A stretch of DNA of 64,000 bases from Parcubacteria group bacterium (GTDB lineage Bacteria; Patescibacteriota; Minisyncoccia; Phycocordibacterales; DATDWN01). The position numbers were made by a program, and so were the translations under genes. Positions 11,660 through 55,727 of the stretch are shown one piece after another (position 1 is the stretch's first letter; every line of letters begins with the position of its first letter). The stretch covers positions 258-64,257 of the forward strand of contig JBCLGS010000002.1 of NCBI GenBank assembly GCA_039740895.1, in the 5' to 3' direction. The notes beneath the pieces were generated by a model that was given only the letters and a program-made list of their open reading frames with translations, ran no database searches and had not been told where the DNA came from.

Positions 11660-12103
11660 CTAGTCAACTAAAATTGACTTAAAAAAATCCCCAGAAAGAA
11701 TAACTTGCATTCCACCAAAAGGTTTTTCATTTCGTTTGAACTGTCTGCAAATCCATTCAATGAGGTCCAGTCGGTAATGGTGAAGCATTGAAACTTCGTC
11801 AATTATCAAAACTTTTGTTTTTTCAAAACGCTTGTAGAGATACTGTTTCTCCATCATATTTTCAATATCATAATCCGTCAGAACATCTCTGATACCGAGC
11901 CCAGACCATGAGTGAATAGTCTGACCACCAAGGTGCGTTGCGGCAATACCAGTGGACGCTGTTACGGCTACATCCACAGCATTTGATTTCAGATATTTTA
12001 TATACTCATTTAAGACATGAGTTTTTCCGCTCCCAGCAGGTCCTGTAAGAAAAACATTTTTACCCAGTTTTAATATATCGAGTGCTTCGCTTTGTAACAT
12101 CAC
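11660..12103 (-). pseudogene. truncated duplicate of the Pif1-like helicase 5-prime end (first 142 codons, then frame runs into a stop)
   Basis: Lies within direct-repeat copy 2 (11681-12134); identical N-terminal 142 aa to the full-length gene; lacks the rest of the helicase. Confidence 0.8.
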
Positions 12104-15553: not shown

Positions 15554-15610
15554 AGTTTTTAATTCAAATTTGGCGCATTTCGTTGTTGGACTTCAAAAAA
15601 TTATTCTTTT

Positions 15611-15690
15611 CCTTACAGAAACAGTACACCTTTCACATTTTGATTACAAAATGCTCAAGGTCTTGCGAAGTGATAACATCACTTCTCACC
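15611..15690 (+). repeat. family A hairpin repeat, copy 1 (ccttacagNNNcagtacacctttcaca...gaagtgataacatcacttctcacc)
   Basis: ~80 bp unit with two internal hairpins; copy 2 at 15728-15807, inverted copy 3 at 22596-22674. Confidence 0.8.
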
Positions 15691-15727
15691 TTACAATGAG
15701 TAAGGCTTGAATTATTTTTATCGTCCG

Positions 15728-15807
15728 CCTTACAGGCGCAGTACACCTTTCACACTTTGACTACAAAGTATTCAAGGTTTTACGAAGTGATAAAATCACT
15801 TCTCACC
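15728..15807 (+). repeat. family A hairpin repeat, copy 2
   Basis: About 85% identical to copy 1, tandem with a ~37 bp spacer, inside the rpsP-KH-trmD operon spacer. Confidence 0.8.
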
Positions 15808-15908
15808 TAGAACTACACTCAAATCTGAATTAAAAACACAATAACACATTTTTTATAAAAAGAAAAGTCCTGATTTCTCAGAACTTTTTTTTTAAATATT
15901 TATTTAAA

Positions 15909-16235
15909 TTATAGCTTTAAGTCAGCCATTGCCTCGTCTACAGTTTTGCTAGCAGATACGGGTTTTACTTCCCCTTCTTCTCGTATACTTCCAGCTGGTT
16001 CATTAATTTTCAAATTAACTCGAGCGTTGTTTTTCATTCCAACAACTCGTAGTAATGTTCGGATAGCCTTTGCTGTGTTACCTTCTCGTCCGATAATCTT
16101 TCCCATATCTGCTGCATTGACATTTAATGTCATCAGTACACCCATCTCATCCACTGTTCTTGTGATTTTTACATCTTGTGGATACTCTACTAATGCCTTA
16201 ACAACAAACTCTAAAAATTGTACATCGTTTTCCAT
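15909..16235 (-). CDS. KH-domain RNA-binding protein (KhpA/YlqC-like)
   Basis: 108 aa with GKIIGREGNTAKAIRTL KH motif; conserved position between rpsP and trmD. Confidence 0.75.
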   Translation of the reverse strand: MENDVQFLEFVVKALVEYPQDVKITRTVDEMGVLMTLNVNAADMGKIIGREGNTAKAIRTLLRVVGMKNNARVNLKINEPAGSIREEGEVKPVSASKTVDEAMADLKL

Positions 16236-16293: not shown

Positions 16294-16803
16294 TTACGCA
16301 ATAGTTTCCTCCACAGATGGAGCAACGACTGGGACATCTTGAGCTGGAGTGACTGGCGCCTCAGGATTACCTGATGCGTAAGTGGCCTCAAGAGTACTTG
16401 ATGCATAAGTGGCCTCAAGAGTACTTGATGCATAAGTGTCCACTTCGTTTCCCTTATCCACTTCGTTTCCCTTATCCGCTTCGCTTTCCTTAGCTGGAGC
16501 AGTTACAACAGGAACTTCTTTTACAATGGCATTTTTCAAAGGAAGAACATTGACTTTCTTTCCTTCTATAATTTTCCTACTAACCAAAAGATTATGAACG
16601 GTGCCTGAAGTTTGTGCTCCTTGTAACATCCAATAATTTATTCTCTCTGCATTGAAGACAGCTTTCTCTCCGCTTCTTGAATCATAGTTACCCAAAATCT
16701 CAAGTGATTTACCACTTTTTGTAGAGTTCTTTGAATCAGTTAGAACAAGTCTAAAAACTGGTTCGTGTTTTCGTCCTACTCTTTGTAATCGTATTTTTAA
16801 CAT
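16294..16803 (-). CDS. rpsP: 30S ribosomal protein S16 with ~80-aa repetitive C-terminal extension
   Basis: Start at internal Met MLKIRLQRVGRKHEPVFRLVLTD (canonical S16 N-terminus); the tracked ORF runs further upstream antisense to rnr, which is probably not translated. C-terminus carries tandem DKGNEV x2 and TYASSTLEA x2 repeats. Confidence 0.85.
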   Translation of the reverse strand: MLKIRLQRVGRKHEPVFRLVLTDSKNSTKSGKSLEILGNYDSRSGEKAVFNAERINYWMLQGAQTSGTVHNLLVSRKIIEGKKVNVLPLKNAIVKEVPVVTAPAKESEADKGNEVDKGNEVDTYASSTLEATYASSTLEATYASGNPEAPVTPAQDVPVVAPSVEETIA

Positions 16804-16857
16804 GTGGCCATGATAACAGAATTGGTGAAAATGGTCAACTATGTTAGTATATTGGGC

Positions 16858-18936
16858 ATGAATAAAAATACTCCAGAAAAAAAACAACAAAACGAGAACG
16901 AGTCTTTGATAGGAACAATTAGCGTAAATACAAAAGGTGTTGGATTTTTTGATAGACTGGAAAAAGAAGCTACATTGGAGATTCAACCAGAGAATTTGAA
17001 CCGCGCTTTTCACGGGGATACTGTTGAAGTCACCTCCCTTGGCACAAAAGTGAAAGACAGGGAGCAAGGTAAAGTGGTCAAAATAATTTCAAGAATAAAA
17101 AACAAATTTGTCGGAATAATTCGAGAAACTGACGGCTTAGTTTTCCTCGTTCCTGACGACAGGAGAATGTACACCGATATCAGAATCGCAGACAAAGAAC
17201 TTCCCACTGATTTAGAAAATAAAAAAGTTTTGGTTGAAATAATAGACTGGGAGGGCGACCGAAATGGACCAATCGGCAAAATAGAAAAAGTGGTTGGAAC
17301 CATCGGCGAAAACAATACTGAAATGGAGTCTATCGTTTTGGAAAAAGGTTTCAATGTTGGTTTCCCCGCCGATGTTGAAGAAGAAGCACACAACTTGAAA
17401 ATTAAATTTGACGCTGAGGTAAAATCCGGATTTTCAGATTTGGATGCAGTTCAAGGCGCCGGCGAGGCTCGTGACCAAGCTGTACTTAATGGTACTGCGC
17501 GTGGAACGAACGCAGCCGGCAACGAAGAAATGCGCCAAATCTGGAAATCTGGTCGCAGGGATATGAGGGGAACGACTACAATGACCATCGACCCAGCTGA
17601 CGCCAAGGACTTTGACGACGCCATTTCTTTCAAAGAAATTAGTGAAAATTTATATGAAATTGGAATTCACATCGCCGATGTGTCTTACTTTGTTACACCA
17701 GGAACAGCTTTGGATCGTGAATCAGAAAAGCGAGGGCTTTCAGTGTATCTTGTAGACAGAACGATTCCCATGCTTCCAGAAGTGCTTTCAAATGACCTTT
17801 GTTCACTCAATCCAAATGAAGACAAGTACACTTTTTCAGCGGTATTCAAAATTAATTCTGAAGGTGTAGTGCAAGATAAATGGTTTGGACGAACTGTTAT
17901 ACATAGTGATAAGAGATTTTCATATGAAGAAGCTCAGGATGTTTTAAATGGAAAGTTAGAAAGTCCATACGGAAAACAGCTTCAGACACTCCAAGCTATC
18001 GCCAAAAAACTTGAAAAACAAAAATTCAGTAACGGTGCAATCGCCTTTGAAACAGAGGAAGTGAAGTTTGAGCTAGACGCGACAGGCAAACCTATCCGCG
18101 TTTACAAAAAAAGCCGACTTGATACACATAAACTTGTTGAGGAATATATGCTACTTGCAAACCGTGAGGTCGCAAAATACATTTTCCATTCACAAGGAAA
18201 TATAAATAAAAAAGGTTCGCAGTCCGTTTATCGTATCCACGGCTCACCAGACAAAGATAGAATTCAGAGCCTCGCAATATTTCTAAAAGCTTTAGGTTTT
18301 GATTTGACAAATAAAGATGGAGAGGTTACTTCCCGAGATATCAATAAACTTTTGAAAGAAGTTGAAGGAACACCAAACGAAGAACTTATTAAAACTGCCA
18401 CAATCCGCTCAATGCAGAAAGCTATTTATTCTACAAAAAATATTGGCCATTTTGGGCTTGCTTTCACATTTTACACACACTTCACTTCACCTATCCGCCG
18501 ATATCCAGACTTGCTCGTGCATCGATTCTTACAGCGAGAACTGACTGGCGGAAAAATAGAACAAAATGAATACGAAAAATTTGAACGCATTTGTATGTCC
18601 TCTTCAGAATCAGAAAAGAGAGCTTCAGACGCAGAGCGAGCAAGTATCAAATACAAACAAGTTGAATACATGCAGGGTCATATCGGAGAAAGTTTTGACG
18701 GTATAATTACAGGTGTCACGGAGTGGGGTATCTACATTGAAGAAAAAGAAACCAAATGCGAAGGTATGGCAAAACTTCGCGACCTTACAGACGACTTTTA
18801 TGTTTTAGATGAGAAAAATTACACGATCAGAGGTCAGAAAACTGGCAAAAAATACACCCTCGGCGACAGTGTCAGATTCAAAGTTGTCTCGGCAGACTTA
18901 GAAAGGCGAGTTTTGGATTATGTTTTAATAAGTTAG
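16858..18936 (+). CDS. rnr: ribonuclease R (RNB-family 3-prime to 5-prime exoribonuclease)
   Basis: Cold-shock-like N-terminus, RNB catalytic block MTIDPADAKDFDDAISF, C-terminal S1 domain; start placed at MNKNT (the ORF opens at 16804, abutting the rpsP start; 16831 is another candidate). Confidence 0.88.
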   Translation: MNKNTPEKKQQNENESLIGTISVNTKGVGFFDRLEKEATLEIQPENLNRAFHGDTVEVTSLGTKVKDREQGKVVKIISRIKNKFVGIIRETDGLVFLVPDDRRMYTDIRIADKELPTDLENKKVLVEIIDWEGDRNGPIGKIEKVVGTIGENNTEMESIVLEKGFNVGFPADVEEEAHNLKIKFDAEVKSGFSDLDAVQGAGEARDQAVLNGTARGTNAAGNEEMRQIWKSGRRDMRGTTTMTIDPADAKDFDDAISFKEISENLYEIGIHIADVSYFVTPGTALDRESEKRGLSVYLVDRTIPMLPEVLSNDLCSLNPNEDKYTFSAVFKINSEGVVQDKWFGRTVIHSDKRFSYEEAQDVLNGKLESPYGKQLQTLQAIAKKLEKQKFSNGAIAFETEEVKFELDATGKPIRVYKKSRLDTHKLVEEYMLLANREVAKYIFHSQGNINKKGSQSVYRIHGSPDKDRIQSLAIFLKALGFDLTNKDGEVTSRDINKLLKEVEGTPNEELIKTATIRSMQKAIYSTKNIGHFGLAFTFYTHFTSPIRRYPDLLVHRFLQRELTGGKIEQNEYEKFERICMSSSESEKRASDAERASIKYKQVEYMQGHIGESFDGIITGVTEWGIYIEEKETKCEGMAKLRDLTDDFYVLDEKNYTIRGQKTGKKYTLGDSVRFKVVSADLERRVLDYVLIS

Positions 18937-20179: not shown

Positions 20180-22522
20180 CTACTTCGCTACGGAAACTGC
20201 TTGGTCAAAAGCGACAGAGAGAAGTTTTGAGCCGCCACCCATTCCCATTGTCACGCCGTATAAAATACCAGCGCGGGACATTGTTTCGCGGTTGTGAGTG
20301 ATAACAATAAGCTGAGAAAACTTGGAAAGATTTTCCACCATATCGGCATATTTTTTGGAATTGGCTTCGTCCAGTGCCGCATCTGTTTCGTCCAAAATAA
20401 TAAATGGCGGAGGATTGACTTGGGTCACGGCGAAAATTAAAGCGATGGATGTCAAAGCTCTTTCACCACCAGAAAGCATCATCAATCCCTTCACTTTCTT
20501 TTTTGGCAAACTAACTTCAATATCAATTCCCTCTTCGCTCAACAAAGCTTCTTCATACGCTTGTTCGCCATCGTCCAATAAACCACTTATGTCGTCGTCC
20601 TTTCCGCCAAAGGCGGATCCGTCCGATGAGGCGGACTTTTTTTTCTTTGGTGGATTTATTACAGACAAGTGTGCCTCTCCTCCTCCGAACATCATCGCAA
20701 AATATTCTTTGAATTGTACATTGATTTTCTCCACACCATTTTTAAATTCAGTTGAAAGTCTTTCGTCTAAATCTTTTATAAGCTCTGTCAGTGACACAGC
20801 CGATTGTTCCAAATCAATAATTTCCTTTGCAAGAAATTCATCTCTCTCAGTAGCATCTGTGTATTCTTTCATTGTTTCGGAACCGCCAATACCTCCAGCG
20901 TCTTCCAATCGGATTTTTATTTTCTCAATAGCCCGCCTGCGTTCTTCCTGGATATTACGTGGCTCATCATAATTAAAAGGAATACTTTCTCCGCCAAAGG
21001 CGGATCCGTCCGATGAGGCGGAAAATTGCAAAATACTCGTACCAAGCATCATCCCAAGCTCTGTAAGTTCCCGCTTGAAATCTTCTTTGATTAACCTAAG
21101 TGTTTCTTCTTCGGCAGAAACAGTATGAAGTTTTGACCGAGCTTCCTGTCCTCCCGCCATAATTCTGAAAATGTCTTTTTCTGCATCACGATTTGAATCT
21201 TTTTCTTTTTCTATTTTATTTTTCAGTGAATTATACTGCGTTGCAAGTTCTGTCTCACGAGATTTCATTCCATTTATTTTTGAATCAATTTCACCCTTTG
21301 AACTCTTCAGATTTTCAATATCCCTCTCCGCCTCAGCAAGAAGTGACACCTGCCCGACTACATTCAGGCGGGTGTCCACTCGGTCTTTATTATCATCAAC
21401 AAAATCTTGTAGGGCTCTACTTATTTCATCAATGACTCGCAAGAGTGTCTCAGTGTCTCTGGTCTCTCTAGCTTGAACTATTTTTTCCTCCAAACTTTTT
21501 TGCAAAGCTTCCACTGAAACTAGAGTAACTGTCTTGTGTAAATAAGATGAGGTGACTTCTTCTTGTTTTCGGACCATTCGTGCGAGGGAAGAAAGTTCAC
21601 CGTCAATTCTTCCAAACTCTTTGAAGAGCGAATCTTTTTCTTCGCGGATATCATGCAAAGATTTTTCAAGAATCATCAGTTCGTCACTGACCAAGTCTTT
21701 GTGCGTAACATTTTCTAAAACAGACCGAGCTTTCGTCAATTCTTCTTCAAGTTTTTTTATTTCTTTTTCCAGTGGTTCTTTTTCACTAGATATTTTTTCT
21801 GATTTACTTTTTATATATTGGCCTTCGCGATTGCAGTATTCCATTGCCCTCTGCTTTAAATCCTCTTTCATCTCTAATGTCTTCTGGACTTTCTCTACTT
21901 GTTTTCTCAAAAATTTAATATGAGGCATTATTTCGCGACGGAGCGATTCTACCTGAGCAATATTCTCCCGAGTTTTTTCTAACTTTCTCTGACTCTCATG
22001 TTTTTTATATTGATATAGTTTCAAGCCAAGTGCATCCTCTATCATTGCCTTACGCTCTTTGATACTAGCGTTCAAAATTCTATCCGCTTCACCTTGAGAA
22101 ATAATATGATGTCCAGAAGCTCCAATATGTGCTGAGTTCAAAAGCTCCACTACATCTCGAAGTCGCACATGGGAACCATTTATTAAATATTCATTTACAG
22201 AATCTCGATGGACCACTCGCTCTATAACAACCTCCTCAAAATCAACCGGTAAAAATCGTGAGGTATTGTCTAAGACAAGCTTAACGCTTGCCCGATTCGC
22301 CCGGGGTGAATCACCAGTGCCGTTGAATATCAAATCCTCACCCTTTTTTCCTCGAAGAGACTTGATAGACTGTTCGCCGAGCACAAATCGAAAGGCCTCA
22401 GCCACATTGGACTTGCCTGAGCCGTTTGGACCTACGATAGCAGAAATAGGAGATGAAAATGTCAGCTCGCTTTTCTTAGCAAATGATTTAAAACCAGTAA
22501 GCTCGATACTTTTCAGATACAT
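20180..22522 (-). CDS. smc: SMC-family chromosome segregation ATPase (short form)
   Basis: N-terminal Walker A GPNGSGKSN, long coiled coil, C-terminal signature LSGGERALTSIAL and Walker B ILDETDAALD; contains two in-frame 35-bp palindromic inserts. Confidence 0.85.
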   Translation of the reverse strand: MYLKSIELTGFKSFAKKSELTFSSPISAIVGPNGSGKSNVAEAFRFVLGEQSIKSLRGKKGEDLIFNGTGDSPRANRASVKLVLDNTSRFLPVDFEEVVIERVVHRDSVNEYLINGSHVRLRDVVELLNSAHIGASGHHIISQGEADRILNASIKERKAMIEDALGLKLYQYKKHESQRKLEKTRENIAQVESLRREIMPHIKFLRKQVEKVQKTLEMKEDLKQRAMEYCNREGQYIKSKSEKISSEKEPLEKEIKKLEEELTKARSVLENVTHKDLVSDELMILEKSLHDIREEKDSLFKEFGRIDGELSSLARMVRKQEEVTSSYLHKTVTLVSVEALQKSLEEKIVQARETRDTETLLRVIDEISRALQDFVDDNKDRVDTRLNVVGQVSLLAEAERDIENLKSSKGEIDSKINGMKSRETELATQYNSLKNKIEKEKDSNRDAEKDIFRIMAGGQEARSKLHTVSAEEETLRLIKEDFKRELTELGMMLGTSILQFSASSDGSAFGGESIPFNYDEPRNIQEERRRAIEKIKIRLEDAGGIGGSETMKEYTDATERDEFLAKEIIDLEQSAVSLTELIKDLDERLSTEFKNGVEKINVQFKEYFAMMFGGGEAHLSVINPPKKKKSASSDGSAFGGKDDDISGLLDDGEQAYEEALLSEEGIDIEVSLPKKKVKGLMMLSGGERALTSIALIFAVTQVNPPPFIILDETDAALDEANSKKYADMVENLSKFSQLIVITHNRETMSRAGILYGVTMGMGGGSKLLSVAFDQAVSVAK
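20601..20635. repeat. GC-rich palindromic element inserted in-frame in smc (copy 1; encodes SASSDGSAFGG)
   Basis: TTCCGCCAAAGGCGGATCCGTCCGATGAGGCGGA contains the TCCGCC-AAA-GGCGGA hairpin; identical copy at 20988-21022. Confidence 0.8.
20988..21022. repeat. GC-rich palindromic element inserted in-frame in smc (copy 2)
   Basis: 35/35 match to copy 1, 387 bp away, same frame. Confidence 0.8.
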
Positions 22523-22583
22523 TATATTTAGTATACCAAAAAAATGAACGGTCGTGGAAATTTTTTATAAATTTTCAGATTTG

Positions 22584-22745
22584 AGCCAAGGTCGAGTGAG
22601 AAATGATATTATCATTTCGCAAGACCTTGAGCATTTTGTAATCAAAATGTGAAAGGTGTACTGCTCCTGTAAGGAGGAAAATTAAAAAATGATTAGAGCC
22701 ATACTTAGTGGTATGGTGAGAATTATTTTTGTTTTTTAGACGATG
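22584..22745 (+). repeat. composite intergenic element: family B structured repeat (copy 1) with a nested inverted family A insertion (22596-22674)
   Basis: ccaaggtcg lead-in, then inverted family A, then the gagccatacttagtggtatggtgag inner hairpin flanked by an AT-rich outer stem. Confidence 0.75.
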
Positions 22746-22790
22746 CTCCCTGTTTGCTCAAGAGCGAAGCGATTGATTTGCAAACAGCAG
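22745..22790 (+). repeat. family D hairpin element gctccCTGTTTGCtcaagagcgaagcgattgatttGCAAACAGcag; inverted copy at 49884-49929
   Basis: 8-bp stem; the second copy carries a compensatory C:G to T:A change (ctgtttgt / acaaacag). Confidence 0.75.
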
Positions 22791-22805
22791 TCCTTTAGGG
22801 CTCCA

Positions 22806-22863
22806 TTATTTTCTTATGAGCGAAGCGAGTTAGAAAATAAGCAGTACCCTTGTGGTAAGATTG
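22806..22863 (+). repeat. family C element ttttCTTATgagcgaagcgagttagaaaATAAGcagtacccttgtggtaagattg; second copy 23738-23797
   Basis: ~58-bp near-identical copies in the smc-rnc and rnc-nusB spacers. Confidence 0.8.
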
Positions 22864-22882
22864 TCCAAATATGAAAGTTTAT

Positions 22883-23578
22883 TTAATTCCAGCCCCGAAC
22901 TTCAAGTGCCAATCGGGCCGCCACCTGTTCCGCATCTTGCTTTGAATCGCCTACACCTTCAGCAACCAAATTTCTGCCAATATAAACACCAACGGTGAAT
23001 TTCTTGTCATGGTCTGGACCAGTTTCTTTGATCGTTTTGTATGATGGAGTAACACCATCAAACTCTTGAGCTTTTTCCTGAAACAATGATTTTGAATCAA
23101 TAAAACTTTTTGCAGAAATAATATCATCAATAAGTGGAGTGAAATTTCTTTCGATAAAACCCTTGGCAGAATCATATCCTTGGTCAAGATAAATTGCTCC
23201 GATAAGTGCCTCTAAGACATTGGCTAAAATATATTGTCTAGCTCGTCCTATGTCCTTACTCTCACCTTTTGAAAGAAGTAGATAATCGTTTATAGAAAGT
23301 CTGGTGGCAATCTCTGAACATGTAGTAGCATTCACGAGCGAAGAACGATAAGCGGTCAACTCTCCTTCCGGCTTAGTTGGGTATTTTGCGTATAGGAAGT
23401 CTGTGATAACAAGCTCCAAAACAGCGTCGCCTAAAAACTCTAATCTCTCATTATGAGAAAGTCCTGATGCTTTGTTTTCGTTGATATATGAGCGGTGTAC
23501 AAAAGCTTGCGTCAAAAGACCAACATCTTTGAATGCTAGCCCCGCTTTCATTTGAAATTCTGTAAAATCTATAATCAT
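22883..23578 (-). CDS. rnc: ribonuclease III
   Basis: RNase III signature ERLEFLGDAVLELVITDFLY and C-terminal dsRBD; start taken at MIIDFTEF (the ORF extends to 23623). Confidence 0.9.
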   Translation of the reverse strand: MIIDFTEFQMKAGLAFKDVGLLTQAFVHRSYINENKASGLSHNERLEFLGDAVLELVITDFLYAKYPTKPEGELTAYRSSLVNATTCSEIATRLSINDYLLLSKGESKDIGRARQYILANVLEALIGAIYLDQGYDSAKGFIERNFTPLIDDIISAKSFIDSKSLFQEKAQEFDGVTPSYKTIKETGPDHDKKFTVGVYIGRNLVAEGVGDSKQDAEQVAARLALEVRGWN

Positions 23579-23651
23579 GTTTGTAATATAACACAAAACC
23601 AGCTTATTGCAAAAAACCCTCAATTCTTTGCCGAGCTCTGTGGATTTTTGA

Positions 23652-23726
23652 CCAAGGTCGCGTATAAAATTTAAAAATGTGCGAAGCCATACTTAGTAGT
23701 ATGGTGACAAACATTTTTAAATTTTA
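23652..23726 (+). repeat. family B structured repeat, copy 2
   Basis: Perfect 14-bp outer stem AAATTTAAAAATGT / ACATTTTTAAATTT enclosing the conserved GCCATACTTAGTAGTATGG inner hairpin; preceded by ccaaggtcg. Confidence 0.8.
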
Positions 23727-23737
23727 GACAATGCTCC

Positions 23738-23797
23738 ATTATTTTCTTATGAGCGAAGCGAGTTAGAAAATAAGCAGTACCCTTGTGGTAAGATTGG
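23738..23797 (+). repeat. family C element, copy 2
   Basis: See 22806-22863. Confidence 0.8.
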
Positions 23798-23812
23798 ACA
23801 AAAAGACCAGAG

Positions 23813-24706
23813 TTATTTTTTCAATAGAATGTTAATAGCTTTCGTGACCAGCGGCATAATGTCATTATAAAAATTCAAGTCAAGTATATCACCCATTTTA
23901 AACCACTTTGCGTCATCCAGTCCACCCGAGTTTTTTAATTTGATTTCTACATAAGGCGCTTCCACTAGATAATATGTAACATTCTTTTTTATCTTTCCTT
24001 TTTCTGGGTGGTATGTCAGATATTCATTCGAACCAAGTTTTTCTTTTACTTCCACAGGTAAGGAAATCTCATCCTCTATTACCTGAGCAACTTCTTTTTC
24101 TGGATCCGTTCCTGTGATGTGTCCCTTTGATAAAGTCCATCGCCCAAAAACATCATGGACAAGTGCAAGATAAACATCTTCTCCTTCTTTAGCGTAAACC
24201 ACAGCTCCTGCGAGATATTCAATAGGAATATTTACAGGACCCATCTCTTTGTTTTTCTTGTCTTTAGAAGTTTCGTCTTTGCCGGGCTCGCCAAGCTCTT
24301 TGTATACTGCTCCAAGAACTCCGTTTACAAACTTACTGGAAGTATCCCCTCCAAATGTTTTAGAAAGCTCAATAGCTTCATTGATAGCTACCTTTGGTGG
24401 CACTTGTCCTCTGTCGGAAAAAAGGAGCTCATAAAGGCCAATACGGAGAATATTTCGGTCCATCACAGAGATTTTATCTATTGGCCAGTCAGGGGCAGCC
24501 TTCTCTATTATTAAATCAATATCTTTTTGTTTGTCTATAACCCCTTTCATCAAATTTTCCATAAAAGAAAAATCGCCCATGCCAGCTCCAAATTCTTTGG
24601 CATTGCGATTAAATATCTCCACAGATTCTGAGGATGTTTTCTGATTGAAGTCCCATTCAAATAAGGACTGCAGAACTATGCTTCTGGAAAGGTGCCTGTT
24701 AGCCAT
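23813..24706 (-). CDS. nusB: transcription antitermination factor NusB fused to a C-terminal Nudix-like domain
   Basis: N-terminal ~140 aa is NusB-like (RSIVLQSLFEWDF, DRNILRIGLYELLF); C-terminal ~150 aa carries a degenerate Nudix-box-like segment (GHITGTDPEKEVAQVIEDEISL). Confidence 0.7.
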   Translation of the reverse strand: MANRHLSRSIVLQSLFEWDFNQKTSSESVEIFNRNAKEFGAGMGDFSFMENLMKGVIDKQKDIDLIIEKAAPDWPIDKISVMDRNILRIGLYELLFSDRGQVPPKVAINEAIELSKTFGGDTSSKFVNGVLGAVYKELGEPGKDETSKDKKNKEMGPVNIPIEYLAGAVVYAKEGEDVYLALVHDVFGRWTLSKGHITGTDPEKEVAQVIEDEISLPVEVKEKLGSNEYLTYHPEKGKIKKNVTYYLVEAPYVEIKLKNSGGLDDAKWFKMGDILDLNFYNDIMPLVTKAINILLKK

Positions 24707-25213: not shown

Positions 25214-25852
25214 TTATTTTATGCAATTCTTACAAAAAGACTTTCTGTGGAGTTTTGACAAACCAAATTTCTTTATAGCTTCTCTGTGTTTTTTCGTTCC
25301 ATAACCTTTGTGTTCATGGAAACCATACTCTGGAAATTTTTTGTGGGATTTGACCATAATAGCGTCGCGAGAAACTTTTGCCAAAATACTTGCCCAAGCA
25401 ATAATCTGCTCCTTTTCATCACCTTTAATTATTGTTTTCTGATTTACAAATTCCTTCGGAGCTTTTAGCCCTCCATCAAGAAGAATCTGATAACTATCCA
25501 AGGACCGCTCTTGGATAACTTTTTTTATACCTTTCTCAATCGCATATTTAATAGCAAATGAAAGACCTTTTTTATCAATTATTGTATTTGAAATATGTAC
25601 AATCTGAATCTGCAGATGGTCCCCATCTGCAGATTCTGCAGATGGGGACCATCTGCAGATTTCATTTAAATAGTTTGAATACTTTTGACGGGATTCGAGA
25701 GAGAGTTTTTTGCTGTCTTTTCCCAGTGGTGGTAGGCGTTTGTCTTTCTTTAGTTTGGTATAAAACTTTGACTGACAAACAACCACACAGACTGAAACTG
25801 GACCCGCCAGTGGCCCTCTCCCAACTTCATCTATTCCGACAATATATTTCAT
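25214..25852 (-). CDS. rnhB: ribonuclease HII, carrying an in-frame palindromic insertion
   Basis: N-terminal GIDEVGRGPLAGPV RNase HII motif; two adjacent copies of CTGCAGATGG(TCC/GGGA)CCATCTGCAG at 25610-25659 encode SAESADGDHLQIQ inside the protein. Confidence 0.85.
   Translation of the reverse strand: MKYIVGIDEVGRGPLAGPVSVCVVVCQSKFYTKLKKDKRLPPLGKDSKKLSLESRQKYSNYLNEICRWSPSAESADGDHLQIQIVHISNTIIDKKGLSFAIKYAIEKGIKKVIQERSLDSYQILLDGGLKAPKEFVNQKTIIKGDEKEQIIAWASILAKVSRDAIMVKSHKKFPEYGFHEHKGYGTKKHREAIKKFGLSKLHRKSFCKNCIK
25610..25659. repeat. two abutting 23-bp perfect palindromes CTGCAGATGGTCCCCATCTGCAG inserted in-frame within rnhB; a third copy at 55335-55357 inside another gene
   Basis: Exact palindrome; the same 23-mer recurs within the CDS 55158..55556, in both cases encoding SADGDHLQ. 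Confidence 0.85.
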
Positions 25853-37663: not shown

Positions 37664-38365
37664 ATGCAAAACGAAATAAATTGGAAAAAATACTTCTTCT
37701 CATTTGTCATCACTGCGATTATATTCGCTACAGCAATTTATCTAAGCAGTTATTTCAGCCAGAAAAAAATCGACGAAATTAGAGGGATTCAGGATAAAAT
37801 ATATATTGATATTTTATCCAGTGAAACTCAATTTGCTTTGTTAGAAGAATCTGTTTGCAAAGATGTTGGTTCTGAAACTTTATCCAAAGAGCTTGGTATA
37901 TTGGAAGAAAAGCTATCTTCCACAGAGCGAGAGCGAGGTTTTGATGACCCAGAAGTACAGAATCTAAAAAAATACTACTCCCTATTAGAAATAAAAGATT
38001 ATCTTTTAATGAATAAGATAAGTCAAAAATGTAATAAAACACCCTTATCAATTATATATTTCTACTCAACAGATCCCACTTGCTCTGACTGTGAAAGACA
38101 GGGCTATGTCCTGACAAAGCTAAGGCAAGATTATCCTGATCTTCGTGTATATTCATTTGACTACAATATTGATTTATCTGCAGTTAAAACTTTAATTTCT
38201 ATCAATAAAGTCAAAAATAATTTACCGGCATTAATTATAAAGGATAAATCTTATTATGGTTTTCAAAGCATTGAGATGCTAGAAAAATCTGTACCAGAAC
38301 TAAAAGCTCTTAAGGATGCAAAAATTGCAAGTACGACAAAAGCATCTTTGATTCCAAAGAAATAA
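37664..38365 (+). CDS. membrane-anchored hypothetical protein with CxxC (thioredoxin-like) motif
   Basis: N-terminal TM helix; FYSTDPTCSDCERQGYVL resembles a thioredoxin-fold CxxC active site. Confidence 0.25.
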   Translation: MQNEINWKKYFFSFVITAIIFATAIYLSSYFSQKKIDEIRGIQDKIYIDILSSETQFALLEESVCKDVGSETLSKELGILEEKLSSTERERGFDDPEVQNLKKYYSLLEIKDYLLMNKISQKCNKTPLSIIYFYSTDPTCSDCERQGYVLTKLRQDYPDLRVYSFDYNIDLSAVKTLISINKVKNNLPALIIKDKSYYGFQSIEMLEKSVPELKALKDAKIASTTKASLIPKK

Positions 38366-38414
38366 TTCACTAATTTATAAGATTAGTAATAAACTTCCAA
38401 ATCTGGATGCAGTT

Positions 38415-38510
38415 CTAGGCGGAAAGTGAAAAATAATCCGAGCCTTACTTTTTGTAAGGTGAGGATAATTTTTTGCTTTCCAACGACGAAATGCGCCAGA
38501 TTTGGAAGTT
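38415..38510 (+). repeat. family B structured repeat, copy 3 (between convergent genes)
   Basis: gaaagtgaaaaataat-ccgaGCCTTACtttttGTAAGGtgagg-ataattttttgc ... ccaacgacgaaatgcgccagatttggaagtttt; the inner stem CCTTAC/GTAAGG covaries with CCATAC/GTATGG in the other copies. Confidence 0.75.
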
Positions 38511-39749
38511 TTAAACAAAGGTCAGAGCTTTACCCATCTTGCCGGCTCTACCAGTTCGTCCTATTCGGTGAACATAGTCCTCGTAAGTAGCTGGTAAGTC
38601 AAAGTTTATTACATGTGAGACATCGTTGATATCCAAACCTCTAGCAGCTACATCTGTAGCTACAAGAACCTGAACACGATTGTCTTTAAAAAGCCCCAGT
38701 GCTCGTTGTCGTCCAGACTGGTTTTTATTTCCATGAATTGACTCGGCCTTGAATCCTCTTTTCGTCAGATTTTCAGAAAGCTTTTCTACGCCGTGTTTTG
38801 TTCGTCCGAATATAAGAACTTTGTTGAATTCTTTTTGAATAAGCAAGGAGTGAAGAATGTCCATTTTATCATCACCGTGTTTGACACGGACAACATCTTG
38901 GTCAATATTTTTTGCAGTATCTTGCGTTTTCACTGAAATCATTACAGGGTTATTTAAAAATTCTTTAATGAGCCCTTGAATTTCTTGTGAAAAAGTCGCT
39001 GAGAAAAATAATGTATGTCTATCTTTGGGCATCTGAGCCATCATAAAACGCATATCGTTTATAAATCCCATATCGAGCATTCTATCTGCTTCGTCCAACA
39101 CAACAGTTTTGAAGTGTATAAGGTTTAGAACTCTTCGCTCTATCAAATCCTTTATTCTTCCTGGAGTACCTATAACAAATTCATTTCTAAATTTAAGGTC
39201 TCGGATTTGCTTACCGATGGGTGAACCACCGACAACGCAAGTTGAAAATAAATTGAGACCAATAATGAAGTCTTTCAACTCTTCTTGAATCTGAATTGCT
39301 AATTCTCTTGTAGGAACAACAATGAGAGCATTCTCATTTGGCTGTGAGAGTATCTTATGAATTAAAGGAATAAGAAATGCCGCAGTCTTGCCTGTACCGG
39401 TGTTGGCAATACCAACAACATCTCTTCCAGTCAAAACATTTGGAATAGCCTTATCCTGAATTGGAGTTGGTAGTACATAACCCTTTTTAATAATGTTTGT
39501 CTTTAACCTTTGGTCTATGACGAAGTCAGCAAATTTATTTTCTGGTATGTATTTTGGAGCAGATTCGATAGCTACCGCTCTGTTTACAAATCGAGCGTGA
39601 TCAATTCTGGCTGTTTTTCCACCACCAAATCCTCCACGAGAATGACTTCGTGAATTTCTTGAAGAAAATCCCTGAGATCTTCCTCCACCATTAAAACTGG
39701 GTTTTCTAAAAACCCGTCCTTTCGGACTATTATTTCTTCTTGTTTCCAT
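38511..39749 (-). CDS. DEAD-box ATP-dependent RNA helicase with RG-rich N-terminus
   Basis: Q-motif, ANTGTGKT Walker A, VLDEADRMLDMGF DEAD box, SAT, HRIGRTGR. Confidence 0.9.
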   Translation of the reverse strand: METRRNNSPKGRVFRKPSFNGGGRSQGFSSRNSRSHSRGGFGGGKTARIDHARFVNRAVAIESAPKYIPENKFADFVIDQRLKTNIIKKGYVLPTPIQDKAIPNVLTGRDVVGIANTGTGKTAAFLIPLIHKILSQPNENALIVVPTRELAIQIQEELKDFIIGLNLFSTCVVGGSPIGKQIRDLKFRNEFVIGTPGRIKDLIERRVLNLIHFKTVVLDEADRMLDMGFINDMRFMMAQMPKDRHTLFFSATFSQEIQGLIKEFLNNPVMISVKTQDTAKNIDQDVVRVKHGDDKMDILHSLLIQKEFNKVLIFGRTKHGVEKLSENLTKRGFKAESIHGNKNQSGRQRALGLFKDNRVQVLVATDVAARGLDINDVSHVINFDLPATYEDYVHRIGRTGRAGKMGKALTFV

Positions 39750-46980: not shown

Positions 46981-48558
46981 ATGTCAAACCTCACAAAAAA
47001 GCAAAAACAAGTCTTCGACTTTATAAATACCTATATTGCCGAAAATGGCATATCTCCGACCATAGAAGAAATACGAAAAAAACTGAAACTCAAAGCAGTT
47101 TCTACTATTCACGAACATATCAATTCCCTCAGAGATAAGGGATATCTCTCAAAGTCTGAAAATTCAGCTAGAAGTCTATTGTTAAAGAAAGAAATCAAGT
47201 CTGTTGTTGAGATTCCTATTGTTGGGCGAATTACTGCGGGATATCCAATAGAAGCGATTGAAAATACAGAAGACACAATTTCCATAATCAATCCTAGTAT
47301 AAAAACTGCCGAGGGATACTATGCTTTGCGTGTTGTTGGGGACAGTATGATTGGTGAAGGAATTTTTGATAACGATATCGTGATAATCAAAAAACAATCG
47401 GTGGCTGAAAATGGACAAACAGTGGTTGCTATTATTGACGATAATGAAGCAACTTTAAAGAAATTGTATCGAGATAAAAATAGATTTAGATTGGAACCTA
47501 GAAATCAATCGATGCTTCCTTTTTACAGAAAAGAAGTAGAGGTCAGAGGTGTTGTCGTTCAAATAATAAGTAATATAAATAATGAAACAGTAGATATTCC
47601 TTCTAAAAAGACTAAGCATGGATTCAAAACAATCGATCTTTTTGCTGGAGTCGGTGGTATACGATTAGGTTTTGAAAATGCCGGATTCAAAACAGTTTTT
47701 GCAAATGATTTTGAGCCAAAATGTAAAGACACTTATGACCTTAATTTTAAAGATTCAAAGTTGGTTATTGAGGATATTAGAAAAATCGGGATTGACGATT
47801 TACCAAAGTTTGATTTCTTGCTCGGAGGATTCCCTTGTCAGGCTTTTTCTATTGCAGGATATAGGCAAGGTTTTAATGATGAGAAAGGCAGAGGCAATTT
47901 ATTTTTTGATATTGTAAGAATTCTTGATGCACGAAAACCTGAAGGTTTTCTACTTGAAAATGTAAAAAACTTGAAAAGCCATGATGGAGGTAAAACATTT
48001 CAAATAATTCTAGACACCTTAGAAAGTCTTGGCTATTATGTCAAAACAAAAGTTTTAAATAGTATGGAGTACGGAAATATCCCGCAAAATAGAGAGCGTA
48101 TTTATATCATAGGTTTTAGAAATAAAGACTATTCAGATAAATTTGAGTTTCCTAGCCCAGTAAAATTAACTGTAAAAATTACTGATTTATTAGAGAAAAA
48201 TGTACCTGAAAAATACTATTACAATGGCAAGCCATTGTTCGAAAAATTAAAAGGCTCTATAAAAGAAGAAGGAAAAGTATATCAATGGCGTAGGCAGTAT
48301 GTCCGAGAAAACAAAAGAGGTGTTTGTCCGACACTAACCGCAAATATGGGTACAGGTGGACATAATGTGCCAATCATAAAAGATAAAAAAGGTATCAGAA
48401 AATTAACCCCGCTTGAATGTGCACGAATACAAGGTTTTCCAAGTAGTTATAAAATACCTAAACTTGCAGATTCTGCTTTATATAAGCAATTTGGGAACTC
48501 TGTTAGTGTCCCAGTTATTGAAGCTGTCGGAAAACAGATGATGAAAGCAATGGAATAA
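46981..48558 (+). CDS. fusion protein: full LexA-like repressor (wHTH + S24 self-cleaving peptidase) joined to a C5 cytosine-specific DNA methyltransferase
   Basis: Residues 1-~200: LexA DNA-binding domain (QVFDFINTYIAENGISPTIEEIRKKL), cleavage-site region GRITAGYPIEA, catalytic GDSM Ser and TLKKLY Lys, C-terminal VRGVVVQIIS. Residues ~215-525: MTase motif I DLFAGVGG, IV GFPCQAFS, VI ENV, VIII QNRERIY, X GNSVSVPV. Single uninterrupted frame verified across the junction (47521-47700). Confidence 0.85.
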   Translation: MSNLTKKQKQVFDFINTYIAENGISPTIEEIRKKLKLKAVSTIHEHINSLRDKGYLSKSENSARSLLLKKEIKSVVEIPIVGRITAGYPIEAIENTEDTISIINPSIKTAEGYYALRVVGDSMIGEGIFDNDIVIIKKQSVAENGQTVVAIIDDNEATLKKLYRDKNRFRLEPRNQSMLPFYRKEVEVRGVVVQIISNINNETVDIPSKKTKHGFKTIDLFAGVGGIRLGFENAGFKTVFANDFEPKCKDTYDLNFKDSKLVIEDIRKIGIDDLPKFDFLLGGFPCQAFSIAGYRQGFNDEKGRGNLFFDIVRILDARKPEGFLLENVKNLKSHDGGKTFQIILDTLESLGYYVKTKVLNSMEYGNIPQNRERIYIIGFRNKDYSDKFEFPSPVKLTVKITDLLEKNVPEKYYYNGKPLFEKLKGSIKEEGKVYQWRRQYVRENKRGVCPTLTANMGTGGHNVPIIKDKKGIRKLTPLECARIQGFPSSYKIPKLADSALYKQFGNSVSVPVIEAVGKQMMKAME

Positions 48559-51911: not shown

Positions 51912-52841
51912 TTAAACTTTTAAATACTTGCGTATGGCGAAATAACTGGAAACCGCTCCGAGGGCAATACCAGAACCAACTAATATCATGAAAATTTGTC
52001 CGAAGTTTGCCGTGTAATAGTGGAAAATATTTAGACCGACGAAAAAGTCCTCTGTCTTGCTTCCAAGCCAAATGGTGACAGGGTAGAAAATAATCAGAGT
52101 GATTATGGCTGATATAAATCCGTAAATAACACCGGCTACGAAAAATGGCCCACGGATGTAGCTGGCCGAAGCCCCCACAAGACGCATAACAGAAATCTCA
52201 TCTCTAGACATATAAATAACTAATCTAATTGTGTTAAATGTGATTAACAAAGAAATAACAATAAGGAAAATAGTCAATGCAAAACCAAGACTATTGGCAG
52301 AATTTATAATTTTTGTTAGACGGTCAATAGCATCTTTGTTCTGCAAATAATTTACCTTATCTATCAGATTCCCACCATCTGAGGGGAGTGCATTCTTACC
52401 CTGCAAAAACTGAGCGATACTTTCATACTGTGAAGGGTCTTTTGCTTTTATATTTAAAGTTGCACCAAGTGGATTGTCTCCGAGTTCGTCTAGTGCTTGA
52501 AGGGTGAACTGGTCATTCTGATGGCGTTGTTTGAAAGTAGCCAAAGCATCTTCTCGAGATACATATATTACAGGAGGGGCAACCTCAGCAAGTTGTTCTA
52601 GATTTTTCTTCAGTGACATTATATCGTCCTCTCCAGCTGTGTTAACAAAATAAACATTTATATCAACTTTGTTTTTTATTTCTGTTAGGGTCGATTTCAA
52701 TATTGCTCCAGAAAAAATAGTTGAGCCGATGACAAAAAGAGTTACCACCATAACCAGTACGGAAGAAAGTGAAACAAATCCGTTACGCCAAAAACTAAAA
52801 AAGCCCGCACGAATTATTCTTTTTGTATTTACCCAAATCAT
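51912..52841 (-). CDS. ftsX: cell division protein FtsX-like permease
   Basis: 309 aa, four TM helices with a large extracellular loop, immediately downstream of ftsE. Confidence 0.8.
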   Translation of the reverse strand: MIWVNTKRIIRAGFFSFWRNGFVSLSSVLVMVVTLFVIGSTIFSGAILKSTLTEIKNKVDINVYFVNTAGEDDIMSLKKNLEQLAEVAPPVIYVSREDALATFKQRHQNDQFTLQALDELGDNPLGATLNIKAKDPSQYESIAQFLQGKNALPSDGGNLIDKVNYLQNKDAIDRLTKIINSANSLGFALTIFLIVISLLITFNTIRLVIYMSRDEISVMRLVGASASYIRGPFFVAGVIYGFISAIITLIIFYPVTIWLGSKTEDFFVGLNIFHYYTANFGQIFMILVGSGIALGAVSSYFAIRKYLKV

Positions 52842-52902
52842 GTTATGTATATATATTATCTTAAAAATCTATCTAAGTCACTATTGAAACTTTCTAATTT
52901 TA

Positions 52903-53008
52903 GCCAAGGTCAAGGCGAAATGTGAAAAATAATTCGAGCCATACTTGTCGTATGGTGAGGATTATTTTTCACATTTCAACGCAGAGATTGGCCAAATTTG
53001 GAAGTTTC
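52903..53008 (+). repeat. family B structured repeat, copy 4
   Basis: ccaaggtcaaggc-GAAATGTGAAAAATAAT-tcgaGCCATACttgtcGTATGGtgagg-ATTATTTTTCACATTTC-aacgcagagattggccaaatttggaagtttcag; 17-bp perfect outer stem. Confidence 0.8.
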
Positions 53009-53687
53009 AGATTATGTATTTTCCTTGCTTATCATCTCGCACAATACGACCATTCTCCATAGTAATCACTCTTTTCCCTAGTGAATCAATTACCCCCTTA
53101 TTATGTGTAGTCAGAATCACTGTCGTTCCAAGGTCGTTTATTTTCTTCAATATCTGGACAATATCATATGTATTATGTGGGTCTAGGTTTCCAGTGGGTT
53201 CGTCGGCAATAATGACATCTGGCTGGTTCACTATGGCTCGTGCAATAGCCACTCTCTGCTTCTCTCCTCCAGAAAGCTCGTGTGGGAAGTTCCATATTTT
53301 CTTTCCTATATCAACCAATTCCAAAACATGTGGCACATCTGCTTCTATTTCGTCATCAGATCGTCCCGCTGCTTCCATAGCAAAAGCAATGTTTTCATAA
53401 ACATTTTTATTTGGAATAAGCCGAAAATCTTGAAAAACTACGCCAATTTTTCGACGAAATTCGTTTATCTGATTTTTATTTAGAGTGTGAATATCTGTTG
53501 ATTCAAAAAATATTTTACCCTCGCTTGGCTTTTCCTCAGCCAAAAACATTTTAAGAAGAGTTGTCTTGCCAGCACCAGAATGTCCCACAATAGAAACAAA
53601 TTCCTTTGGCTCAACTGAGAAAGAAATGTTTTCCAAAGCTATTGAATTGTCCGCGTAAATTTTAGATACTTTATCAAAATAAATCAT
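53007..53687 (-). CDS. ftsE: cell division ABC transporter ATP-binding protein FtsE
   Basis: Walker A GHSGAGKTT, signature LSGGEKQRVAIARA, Walker B IIADEPTGNLD; start taken at MIYFDKV. Confidence 0.85.
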   Translation of the reverse strand: MIYFDKVSKIYADNSIALENISFSVEPKEFVSIVGHSGAGKTTLLKMFLAEEKPSEGKIFFESTDIHTLNKNQINEFRRKIGVVFQDFRLIPNKNVYENIAFAMEAAGRSDDEIEADVPHVLELVDIGKKIWNFPHELSGGEKQRVAIARAIVNQPDVIIADEPTGNLDPHNTYDIVQILKKINDLGTTVILTTHNKGVIDSLGKRVITMENGRIVRDDKQGKYII

Positions 53688-53826
53688 ACTTTCATTATAC
53701 TCTAAATGCCACAATGCACCAAATACTTTTTGCAGACTATTTCCGCACAACGGAAATCGAACAGAAATAATGTTTTGTCGTAGACAAGAACATTTTTCTG
53801 AAGGCAGAAAAGTTTTGGGACCAAAA

Positions 53827-55157: not shown

Positions 55158-55556
55158 TTATTTCAATCCCTTACAGTTTCTGCCTGCAACAAATCCTGCT
55201 TTTTTTGCTTCTTCAATCGATGCAAATTTAATCTGATTTTCTGGCTTTATCATCTTCACTGTTCCACACCACGGAAAATAATACTTTTTACCATTTTTGG
55301 ACCCAATCACTTCCCCGCTCGTATTATTTGACTTCTGCAGATGGTCCCCATCTGCAGAAGTCAAAGGAGTGCTATTCACCACGGTGGCAGATTGGTCGCT
55401 GTTGGGGTAAATAATTTTAATAGGAGATTTGTGCTCTTCCAAAGCTGAAAGTCGGCCCAAAGCGAAGAAAAGACTGGCTATTACAAGAATTAGTACCAGT
55501 GTGTAGAATTGTTTGATTTGGAGCTTTACTTTTTCTACAATATCCTTTATACTCAT
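55158..55556 (-). CDS. membrane-anchored hypothetical protein with an Ada-like metal-binding C-terminus; carries an in-frame 23-bp palindrome
   Basis: N-terminal TM helix; C-terminal KKYYFPWCGTVKMIKPENQIKFASIEEAKKAGFVAGRNCKG resembles the Ada N-terminal zinc-binding domain pattern (weak); the palindrome at 55335-55357 encodes SADGDHLQ. Confidence 0.3.
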   Translation of the reverse strand: MSIKDIVEKVKLQIKQFYTLVLILVIASLFFALGRLSALEEHKSPIKIIYPNSDQSATVVNSTPLTSADGDHLQKSNNTSGEVIGSKNGKKYYFPWCGTVKMIKPENQIKFASIEEAKKAGFVAGRNCKGLK

Positions 55557-55613
55557 GACATTGTAATTTTAACAATTATTCGGAATAAATACGAGGCACA
55601 CAGATACGGATGC

Positions 55614-55705
55614 GATTCAAGGCGGATAAGAAAAAGAATTGGAGACATACTTAGTGGTATGTTGACAATTATTTTTTGAAATCCAACGCAGAAGCACGCC
55701 GGATA
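55614..55705 (+). repeat. family B structured repeat, copy 5 (upstream of rpmA)
   Basis: attcaaggcggataag-AAAAAGAATT-ggaGACATACttagtGGTATGTtgac-AATTATTTTT-tgaaatccaacgcagaagcacgcc. Confidence 0.7.
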
Positions 55706-55727
55706 TGTGAGCCGTAACACAAAAAAA

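Follow-up and report, generated by a model that had tools for sequence, protein, structure and literature searches.

What is the structured sequence that separates ftsE from ftsX in this genome, and what has kept its fold while its letters changed? The stretch considered here comprises 64,000 nucleotides of a Parcubacteria group bacterium (assembly GCA_039740895.1, contig JBCLGS010000002.1, positions 258 to 64,257), hereafter called the window, and the element in question, copy c4 of a repeat family termed Family B, occupies positions 52885-53009 on its plus strand, between the minus-strand genes ftsE (53007-53750) and ftsX (51912-52841). Over its full length it forms a rod-like hairpin with a predicted free energy of -57 kcal/mol as RNA. 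It ends in TCA (53007-53009), which represents the ftsE stop codon TGA read from the other strand and pairs with a TGA at 52885-52887, and the first of two covariance models gave it 122 bits on the plus strand against 42 bits on the minus strand. We consider it probable that Family B consists of non-autonomous mobile palindromic repeats of about 120 bp that inhabit a part of the Patescibacteria (Zambryskibacteria/Paceibacteria-like) and whose fold is under selection. Our best reading places them with MITEs (transposable elements of the miniature inverted-repeat type), REP and ERIC sequences and the Rickettsia palindromic elements (RPEs), with a fold that has been kept unusually well.

A preliminary description had listed five copies of about 100 nt on the plus strand. 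All five are present there, with the inner hairpin and the complementary AT-rich stems that had been described, and in the arm pairs quoted for copies 2 and 4 each arm is exactly the reverse complement of the other. The boundaries, however, had been drawn too short, as the 5' arm was omitted; a full-length copy measures 119-125 nt and is one long imperfect palindrome. A supposedly separate conserved 3' tail does exist, but it is the 3' arm of the two outer helices: repeat finding and a motif search showed that its motif CAACG..GCGCCAAATYTGGAAGTTT matches, as reverse complement, the 5' arm that precedes the start given earlier. The number of copies in the window rises to seven, six on the plus strand and one on the minus strand, with the addition of c6 (17426-17552, plus strand) and copy 7 (15833..15559, minus strand). 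The core pattern has three matches in the window at three or fewer mismatches, as compared to none in 100 shuffles.

Every copy, when folded alone, gives one common rod of stacked helices, with free energies of -35 to -65 kcal/mol as RNA. On one specific strand this rod is built of four stacked helices with two sequence-conserved internal loops between them. The first loop, GAG/UGA, lies directly below the apical CCUUAC...GUAAGG hairpin, and we read it as a G.U pair beside tandem G.A pairs; the second, lower in the rod, consists of YAGGCG facing CAACNANG. Both loops are conserved in sequence while the surrounding helices vary, the apical helix being found as CCTTAC/GTAAGG, CCATAC/GTATGG, GCGTAC/GTACGA or TTGTAT/ATACAA. 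The presence of two such loops suggests recognition by a protein. The inverted repeat spans the whole element, and its termini are not conserved in sequence; they vary and covary. Most reading frames carry stop codons and the family has no coding capacity.

The pairing was examined on 35 full-length copies from about 22 Patescibacteria genomes, using a single nested structure of 49 pairs. Standard pairs account for 84.9 % of the cells, against 33-48 % when the partner column is slid by 1-3 positions and 70.8 % in shuffles. Changes on both sides are seen at 37 of the 49 pairs (20-31 in the slid controls), and double changes in 227 cells (45-77 in the slid controls). The shuffle control ignores relatedness, whereas the slid controls preserve it and still remain far lower; none of 500 shuffles reaches any of the observed measures. 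The compensatory changes first noticed among the window copies are therefore strongly confirmed on the 35 sequences. Additionally, a second covariance model, built from other genomes only and without the window sequences, recovers all seven window copies on the strands given here.

The covariation is also asymmetric between the strands. Paired cells hold 187 G.U as against 60 A.C combinations (67 as against 25 in copies outside the training set), and the element strand is the more stable RNA in all 55 copies, with a mean of -47.2 kcal/mol against -35.3, the mRNA-sense complement being weaker by about 12 kcal/mol. The pairing kept by evolution belongs to one single strand. Covariation that is both extensive and strand-asymmetric implies that a single-stranded fold, of RNA or of single-stranded DNA (ssDNA), is under selection, and a purely double-stranded reading, in which a protein would bind both terminal repeats, is thereby excluded. 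Mutation bias was considered as a source of the G.U excess and rejected, as the usual replication-strand bias would by inference yield A.C on this C-rich strand.

One-strand G.U covariation together with conserved loops is the classic signature of a functional RNA, and the family is conserved over many genomes. Family B could on these grounds represent multi-copy small RNA (sRNA) genes of about 120 nt, located on the better-folding strand, antisense to the 3' ends of genes, and acting in trans or by an antisense route. We regard this as very unlikely, considering that copies occur in frame within a gene or are split by nested repeats, that they are present in some genomes and absent in others at orthologous sites with a patchy overall distribution, and that they lack the expected signals. 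No -10 box was found at a fixed distance upstream in 55 copies, and there were no consistent promoter calls or conserved terminator calls; a consensus scan for intrinsic terminators, defined as a GC-rich hairpin running straight into a U-tract, called a single weak site, located in c3, when applied to c3, c4 and c5. At the Rfam gathering score only two tRNAs were found in the window, and permissive E-value scans of c3 and c4 returned only sub-threshold matches to generic, miRNA-like hairpins, so that no Rfam family matches Family B. Selection on secondary structure, as proposed in the preliminary description, thus stands on the strand-asymmetric covariation, while an independent structured-RNA gene becomes unlikely without promoter, terminator or Rfam match.

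The position of the copies relative to genes provides the next clue. In 29-32 of the 55 copies the 3' end lies 0-7 nt from a stop codon on the opposite strand, but only 3 of the 55 have the 5' end next to a same-strand stop codon, an orientation bias with a binomial probability of roughly 1e-6 by hand estimate. The common layout runs from the stop of one gene through the element in reverse complement and a further 15-50 nt to the start of the next gene. Often the stop codon itself is the outermost part of the stem, and in type II ends (GCTC...GAGC; GCTCTG...CAGAGC) the palindrome starts with the G of TAG. It had been stated earlier that the copies keep one orientation regardless of gene direction; this fails, since most copies run antisense to the gene at whose stop codon they sit and copy 7 is on the minus strand. 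The 32 abutted genes belong to 26 unrelated families, including fusA, secY, rplF, rplU, rpoD, nusG, ftsH, smc and ftsE, and hence Family B is not a regulator of a particular regulon. Several copies are placed between the stop codon and a separate canonical terminator, from which it follows that they are transcribed within the 3' untranslated region (UTR) of the upstream gene, in the reverse-complement sense.

Replication offers a second possible cue for this orientation. Among the 8-kb loci, 22 of 23 show a positive GC skew on the strand that is sense to the genes, and as the skew tracks the gene strand, a replication cue and a gene cue are confounded. In the window, the C-rich strand carries six of the seven copies, among them two with sense orientation relative to their genes; the proportion is not significant and is only a hint of a replication-strand rule.

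A stable hairpin beginning at or a few nucleotides from a stop codon, with its reverse-complement orientation often open in one or two frames, might also be taken for a recoding signal that drives readthrough or frameshifting and so extends the upstream protein. This seems to us barely credible. Among 29 abutting copies no frame past the stop codon is consistently open, the median extensions being 21, 12 and 21 codons in frames 0, -1 and +1, and the offset of the element from the stop codon is not fixed but ranges over 0-7 nt; recoding and readthrough were disfavoured on the first of these counts.

The same geometry recalls the attC sites of integrons, that is, imperfect palindromes after an open reading frame (ORF) whose bottom strand folds as ssDNA and serves a tyrosine recombinase. 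Like them, the copies follow stop codons, fold on the strand antisense to the gene, which probably belongs to the leading-strand template, and conserve structure more than sequence. That Family B is such a recombination substrate is nevertheless highly improbable, as the context fails: the neighbours are core housekeeping genes in conserved operons and not cassettes, no integrase gene is found in the window, and no arrays were seen in the data searched. In attC sites the motifs R''(RYYYAAC)...R'(GTTRRRY) stand at the base of the stem. The comparable motifs of Family B, GTTC.AGG near the 5' side and CCAAC near the 3' side, face each other unpaired across an internal loop, and their order is reversed with respect to attC, where AAC comes first and GTT last.

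What speaks for mobility is the comparison of orthologous junctions (loci of other genomes are given as L numbers). The ftsE-ftsX junction is empty in L005, where it reads ATA TAA AAAT ATG and ftsE is 87 % identical; both in the window and in L020 an element sits immediately behind the stop codon. In the window, the nusB-rnc spacer measures 189 nt, with c2, and the rnc-smc spacer 360 nt, with c1; the former is 5-30 nt long in L028, L036 and L042, the latter 17-25 nt in L041 and L042. Conversely, an element follows the smc stop codon in L028, L023 and L031 and is lacking in the window; its ends are of type I in L028 and of type II in L031 and L023. The copies at the secY stop codon in L002 and L021 are 60 % identical and belong to different subfamilies, and copies of about 90 % identity follow unrelated genes in different genomes. 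Copy c6 lies in frame within the RNase R ORF (16804-18936, plus strand), between the CSD2 and RNB domains, where it encodes FSDLDAVQGAGEARDQAVLNGTARGTNAAGNEEMRQIWKSG and keeps the entire nested hairpin. The 38-41 residues that it encodes are absent from 18 RNase R orthologs, and the peptide has no homologue among 5.8 billion protein clusters. The preliminary description had named decaying MITE copies as a refutation, yet this reading is right in one half: empty sites, in-frame insertion and patchiness are the behaviour of mobile DNA, but the copies are not simply decaying, because the fold is maintained.

The distribution of the family is indeed uneven. An exact-pattern scan for the 25-base core, with one genome per species, found it in 34 loci, which belong to about 22 metagenome-assembled genomes carrying the labels Zambryskibacteria, Paceibacterota, Parcubacteria, Patescibacteria or "Saccharibacteria", and a covariance-model scan of those loci added 14 copies. 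Up to 4 copies are found within one 8-kb locus, and the window has 7 in 64 kb, whereas about 1 Mb around RNase R orthologs on 80 other metagenome contigs of the Candidate Phyla Radiation (CPR) holds only 5; these counts indicate that Family B is dense in some lineages and absent from most. The genes of the window have their best matches, at 70-87 % amino-acid identity, in element-bearing genomes, and with the NusB-NUDIX fusion and a short SMC they fit such an organism. No exact core match was found in viral contigs (IMG/VR).

Members of the family also appear to exchange parts. In the rplF pair (L002, L021) the outer arms are near-identical, while the inner 45 nt have been swapped for another paired module with 12 double changes; the replacement is equally paired and has the same GAG/UGA-type loop. 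This looks like module exchange among family members rather than gradual drift. At two loci, partial type II arms (GCTCTGAGGATTTTTG...) adjoin complete type I copies (L028, about 2560-2610; L032, about 7110-7160), which suggests that Family B also inserts into or beside itself.

It could be argued that the host itself uses the element, perhaps after arrival by transposition, as a cis-acting 3'-end signal in which the hairpin after the stop codon tunes the upstream gene or separates cistrons, by slowing or stalling terminating ribosomes, blocking 3' exonucleases or providing an RNase III processing site. The location of over half of the copies at 0-7 nt from a stop codon, many of them within operons of essential genes, agrees with this, as does the transcription of those copies that precede a canonical terminator, and REP, ERIC and Correia elements provide published precedents. 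In genome pairs with saturated four-fold degenerate sites (identity 0.33-0.47), copies that share a position are still 72-76 % identical and fold intact, and the RNase R copy retains its whole fold despite strong divergence of both sequence and GC content. Against this, the selected pairing, with its G.U and tandem G.A pairs, lies on the mRNA-antisense strand in about 30 of 33 stop-abutting copies, the same genes of close relatives manage without the element, the abutted genes are functionally unrelated, and different subfamilies at one site argue for repeated arrival over conservation in place. On balance, we consider a host-used cis element unlikely.

The interpretation of Family B as mobile repeats faces difficulties of its own. 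The conservation of 72-76 % at shared positions fits purifying selection in place, for a host or cis function, as well as it fits recurrent site-specific insertion. An unambiguous target-site duplication is lacking. Type I ends are flanked by TAA...TAA (L020) or TAA...TAG (L028), which is compatible with a duplication of TA or TAR (TA or TAA in these ends), while type II ends (L031 and c2 of the window) show no duplication, and A/T-rich termini make the boundaries ambiguous. Among about 45 ORFs of the window, which are housekeeping genes, Pfam searches found no transposase, integrase or reverse transcriptase, and a search over about 1.3 Mb overall, by Pfam for the window and by one weak tblastn search with an IS608 Y1 TnpA query, yielded neither an autonomous partner nor a transposase. 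Identities within a genome and between genomes have means of 0.59 and 0.58 and maxima of 0.88 and 0.92; with no near-identical pair in any one genome (at most 88 %), there is no sign of a recent burst. Finally, an ssDNA mechanism like that of IS200/IS605 elements, as reasoned from IS608, would be expected to place the strands the opposite way, while in Family B the strand that folds better runs antisense to the gene and is probably part of the leading-strand template.

If Family B is nevertheless mobile, as we hold probable, its mobilisation would occur in trans. New copies would land at or a few bases after stop codons; it is their placement that is observed, and the act of insertion that we infer. 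An enzyme encoded elsewhere may read the single-stranded hairpin, as ssDNA or RNA, together with its two loops, and compensatory changes would in this manner maintain the fold. Such an enzyme would be closer to the HUH/Y1 hairpin readers of REP and IS200/IS605 sequences than to a transposase that binds double-stranded terminal repeats. The better-folding strand being nearly always antisense to the abutted gene, the mRNA 3' UTR or operon spacer would hold the weaker complement. This orientation bias may stem from a strand-specific insertion step or may have been left by selection, as a very stable hairpin right at the stop codon, or on the lagging-strand template, would probably harm the host; selection on orientation is plausible because a terminating ribosome must open a hairpin that begins at the stop codon. 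A bolder proposal, which we offer only tentatively, is that a hitherto undescribed CPR mobilisation system that reads single strands recurrently homes a two-loop hairpin of about 120 nt (ssDNA or RNA) to the stop codons of essential genes in one orientation, and/or that the hairpins have been domesticated to set termination efficiency or cistron boundaries.

Among known systems, MITEs agree with Family B in size (below about 300 bp), in being non-coding and multi-copy, in having terminal inverted repeats and in insertion polymorphism; no partner autonomous insertion sequence accompanies Family B in the window ORFs (Pfam) or the about 1.3 Mb of loci (the weak tblastn). RPEs resemble it as palindromes of about 100-150 bp, present in many copies in a reduced-genome, host-dependent lineage, with in-frame insertions into housekeeping genes. 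Nearly half of the RPEs are intragenic, and their in-frame insertions add a peptide segment to the protein (PMC10969869). Only 1 of about 60 Family B copies is intragenic, there is no sequence relation, and the host phylum is another one. Docking at stop codons in a fixed orientation and a one-strand G.U excess, as seen in Family B, are not mentioned for RPEs in that review (PMC10969869).

REPs are extragenic palindromes found mostly downstream of ORFs, between unidirectional or convergent genes; their termini often provide the stop codon of the flanking ORF, and some are intragenic (PMC3733652). In E. coli, REPs less than 15 nt from a stop codon affect the translation of the upstream gene and are reported to stall ribosomes (PMC12306157). 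A REP is defined as a hairpin of 20-40 nt with a GTAG or CGTC tag (PMC3733652). Family B shares with REPs the location downstream of ORFs, the termini that supply stop codons and the occasional intragenic copy. It differs in being a single four-helix rod of 120 nt with two loops, where REPs are single 20-40 nt hairpins that are often paired, and no conserved tetranucleotide tag of the GTAG/CGTC type is visible in its alignments. No RAYT-like gene was found in a weak search covering 64 kb of this genome and loci of 8-20 kb from others. RAYTs recognise a folded single strand, and recognition of this kind would explain covariation with strand asymmetry.

ERIC (127 bp) and Correia elements (about 100-200 bp) are similar in size to Family B. 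Both are imperfect palindromes with sequence-conserved terminal inverted repeats and TA duplications, inserted in both orientations. By comparison, the terminal stems of Family B vary and covary, a TA duplication is not clear, the copies are antisense at about 10:1, and there is no sequence relation to ERIC. ERIC and Correia elements are non-coding, lie in transcribed intergenic regions, are conserved across genera and differ strongly in copy number from one lineage to another; RNases attack the hairpins that they form in mRNA, with an effect that depends on orientation (PMC10969869). The pneumococcal BOX, RUP and SPRITE repeats are coexisting small families that insert into one another (PMC10969869). 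Such nesting is shared with Family B and the Families A and C described below, although sequences and host phylum differ and the nesting in the window is one-way. With attC sites, Family B shares the geometry and not the context, as discussed above. Taken together, these comparisons describe Family B as a long palindromic repeat of Patescibacteria with strong covariation and strand asymmetry, which docks at stop codons and hosts two nested repeat families. Full-text searches of incomplete coverage found no description of MITEs or palindromic repeats in CPR/Patescibacteria.

These features have consequences for the host and for annotation. Copies are found within the operons of ribosomal proteins, secY, fusA, ftsEX and smc, and one is found within RNase R. 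The genomes of CPR/Patescibacteria are very small and are generally regarded as streamlined. Here, about 2 % of a 64-kb stretch of core genes is made up of one repeat family, including the repeats nested in it. Family B, with its unusually strong record of covariation, offers a natural experiment for two questions: through which single-stranded molecule a bacterial palindromic repeat works, and how hosts put up with, or make use of, hairpins at stop codons. In CPR metagenomes it will confuse the calling of gene 3' ends, break short-read assemblies and mimic novel non-coding RNA; the covariance model built here enables its annotation.

The individual copies of the window illustrate the range of states. 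Copy c3 (38391-38511, plus strand) is full length and has the top score against the family model, with 141 bits in the first model and, in the window-naive model, 134 bits forward against 58 reverse; its free energy is -64.7 kcal/mol and its terminal inverted repeats read AAACTTCCAAATCTGG...CCAGATTTGGAAGTTT. It abuts the stop codon of a DEAD-box helicase gene (38511-39749, minus strand), and an ORF on the plus strand (37664-38365) ends 27 nt before it. For c4 the window-naive model gives 117 bits forward and 40 reverse. Copies c1, c2 and c4 follow the common layout, as does c3 at its convergent gene pair. Three others depart from it, all of them sense to their genes: c5 before rpmA, c6 inside RNase R and copy 7 between a KH-domain gene and trmD. 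Copy c5 (55595-55713, plus strand) is full length, with an outer stem that is strongly diverged yet complementary (109 bits in the first model; 109 forward and 24 reverse in the window-naive one), and sits between divergent genes, 17 nt upstream of position 55731, where rpmA (L27) starts. Copy c6 is GC-rich (54 %) and scores far lower (56.4 bits forward with an E-value of 1e-10, reverse below 19, window-naive model), yet retains about 50 pairs and a free energy of -64 kcal/mol.

Copies c1 and c2 are full elements broken up by other small repeats and not short versions. Copy c2 (23635-23812, plus strand) abuts the stop codon of the nusB-NUDIX gene (23813-23815); its core has 56 bits in the first model and 56.6 forward against 21.4 reverse in the window-naive one, and its outer stem is of a second type, GCTCTGTGGATTTTTG / CAAAAAGACCAGAG. 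Copy c1 (about 22569-22881, plus strand) ends 1-3 nt from the rnc stop codon (22883-22885), and its core has 48 and, in the window-naive model, 49.8 bits forward. Copy 7, the sole copy on the minus strand, has a core of 31 bits in the first model and 32.8 forward (E-value 6e-5) in the window-naive one; it lies between the KH-domain gene (15909-16235, minus strand) and trmD (14864-15553, minus strand) and ends 5 nt before the trmD ATG. L035 carries a Family B copy at this very position in matching orientation.

Two observations concern possible promoters at ftsX. Read on the minus strand, the degenerate 5' arm of c4 gives rise, at 52926..52897, to a sigma-70-like sequence, TTCACA-18-TAAAAT (10 of 12 matches), pointing at ftsX, and in L020 TGATATAAT is present in the spacer that follows the orthologous ftsE-ftsX copy, ending 6 nt ahead of the ATG of ftsX. 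In such cases the downstream cistron may have gained a new promoter from the insertion or been compelled by it to evolve one.

The repeats that interrupt Family B belong to two further families, which in the window are found exclusively inside Family B, at fixed points, with one-way and co-oriented nesting. Family A is a 78-nt repeat of two hairpins, TGAGAAGTGAT...CTGTAAGG, present at 22597-22674 (plus strand) in c1 and at 15805..15728 and 15688..15611 (minus strand) in copy 7, with other copies in L016, L019 and L026. It occurs only nested in Family B, co-oriented and always directly after AGG, and its ends mimic the GTAAGG|TGAGAA junction of Family B. Family C is a hairpin of 55-56 nt that holds GAGCGAAGCGAG; this includes GCGAAGC, which we take to be a very stable DNA mini-hairpin motif. 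Its three copies, at 22745-22799 and 22800-22855 in c1 and at 23733-23788 (56 nt) in c2, all on the plus strand, lie in the 3' arm of Family B, after GACGAT or GACAAT. The Family C sequences of c1 and c2 with the adjoining Family B sequence are 97 % identical over 70 nt.

The window contains other repeats as well. Within the smc ORF (20180-22522, minus strand) two exact direct repeats of 33 nt (20603-20635 and 20990-21022), 387 nt apart and in frame (SASSDGSAFGG), bracket a coding stretch of 354 nt; the repeat includes a TCCGCC...GGCGGA hairpin. An exact duplication of 300 nt (7616-7915 = 11681-11980) comprises the 5' part of a PIF1-like helicase gene, which is present as a full copy (6362-8038) and a truncated copy (11660-12103). 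The duplication brackets the gene of an archaeal-type SAM synthetase and three ORFs without Pfam match, and the region looks like an inserted island of 4 kb that duplicated its target. A short GC-rich hairpin repeat, TTCTGCAGATGGnnCCCATCTGCAGA, is found at 25608-25664, as two overlapping units, and at 55333-55363, and three tandem units of 27 nt, 85 % identical, lie just upstream of the RNase R gene (16358-16438). Unusual gene fusions include NusB-NUDIX (23813-24706) and a LexA DNA-binding/S24 peptidase protein joined to a C-5 cytosine methyltransferase (46981-48558).

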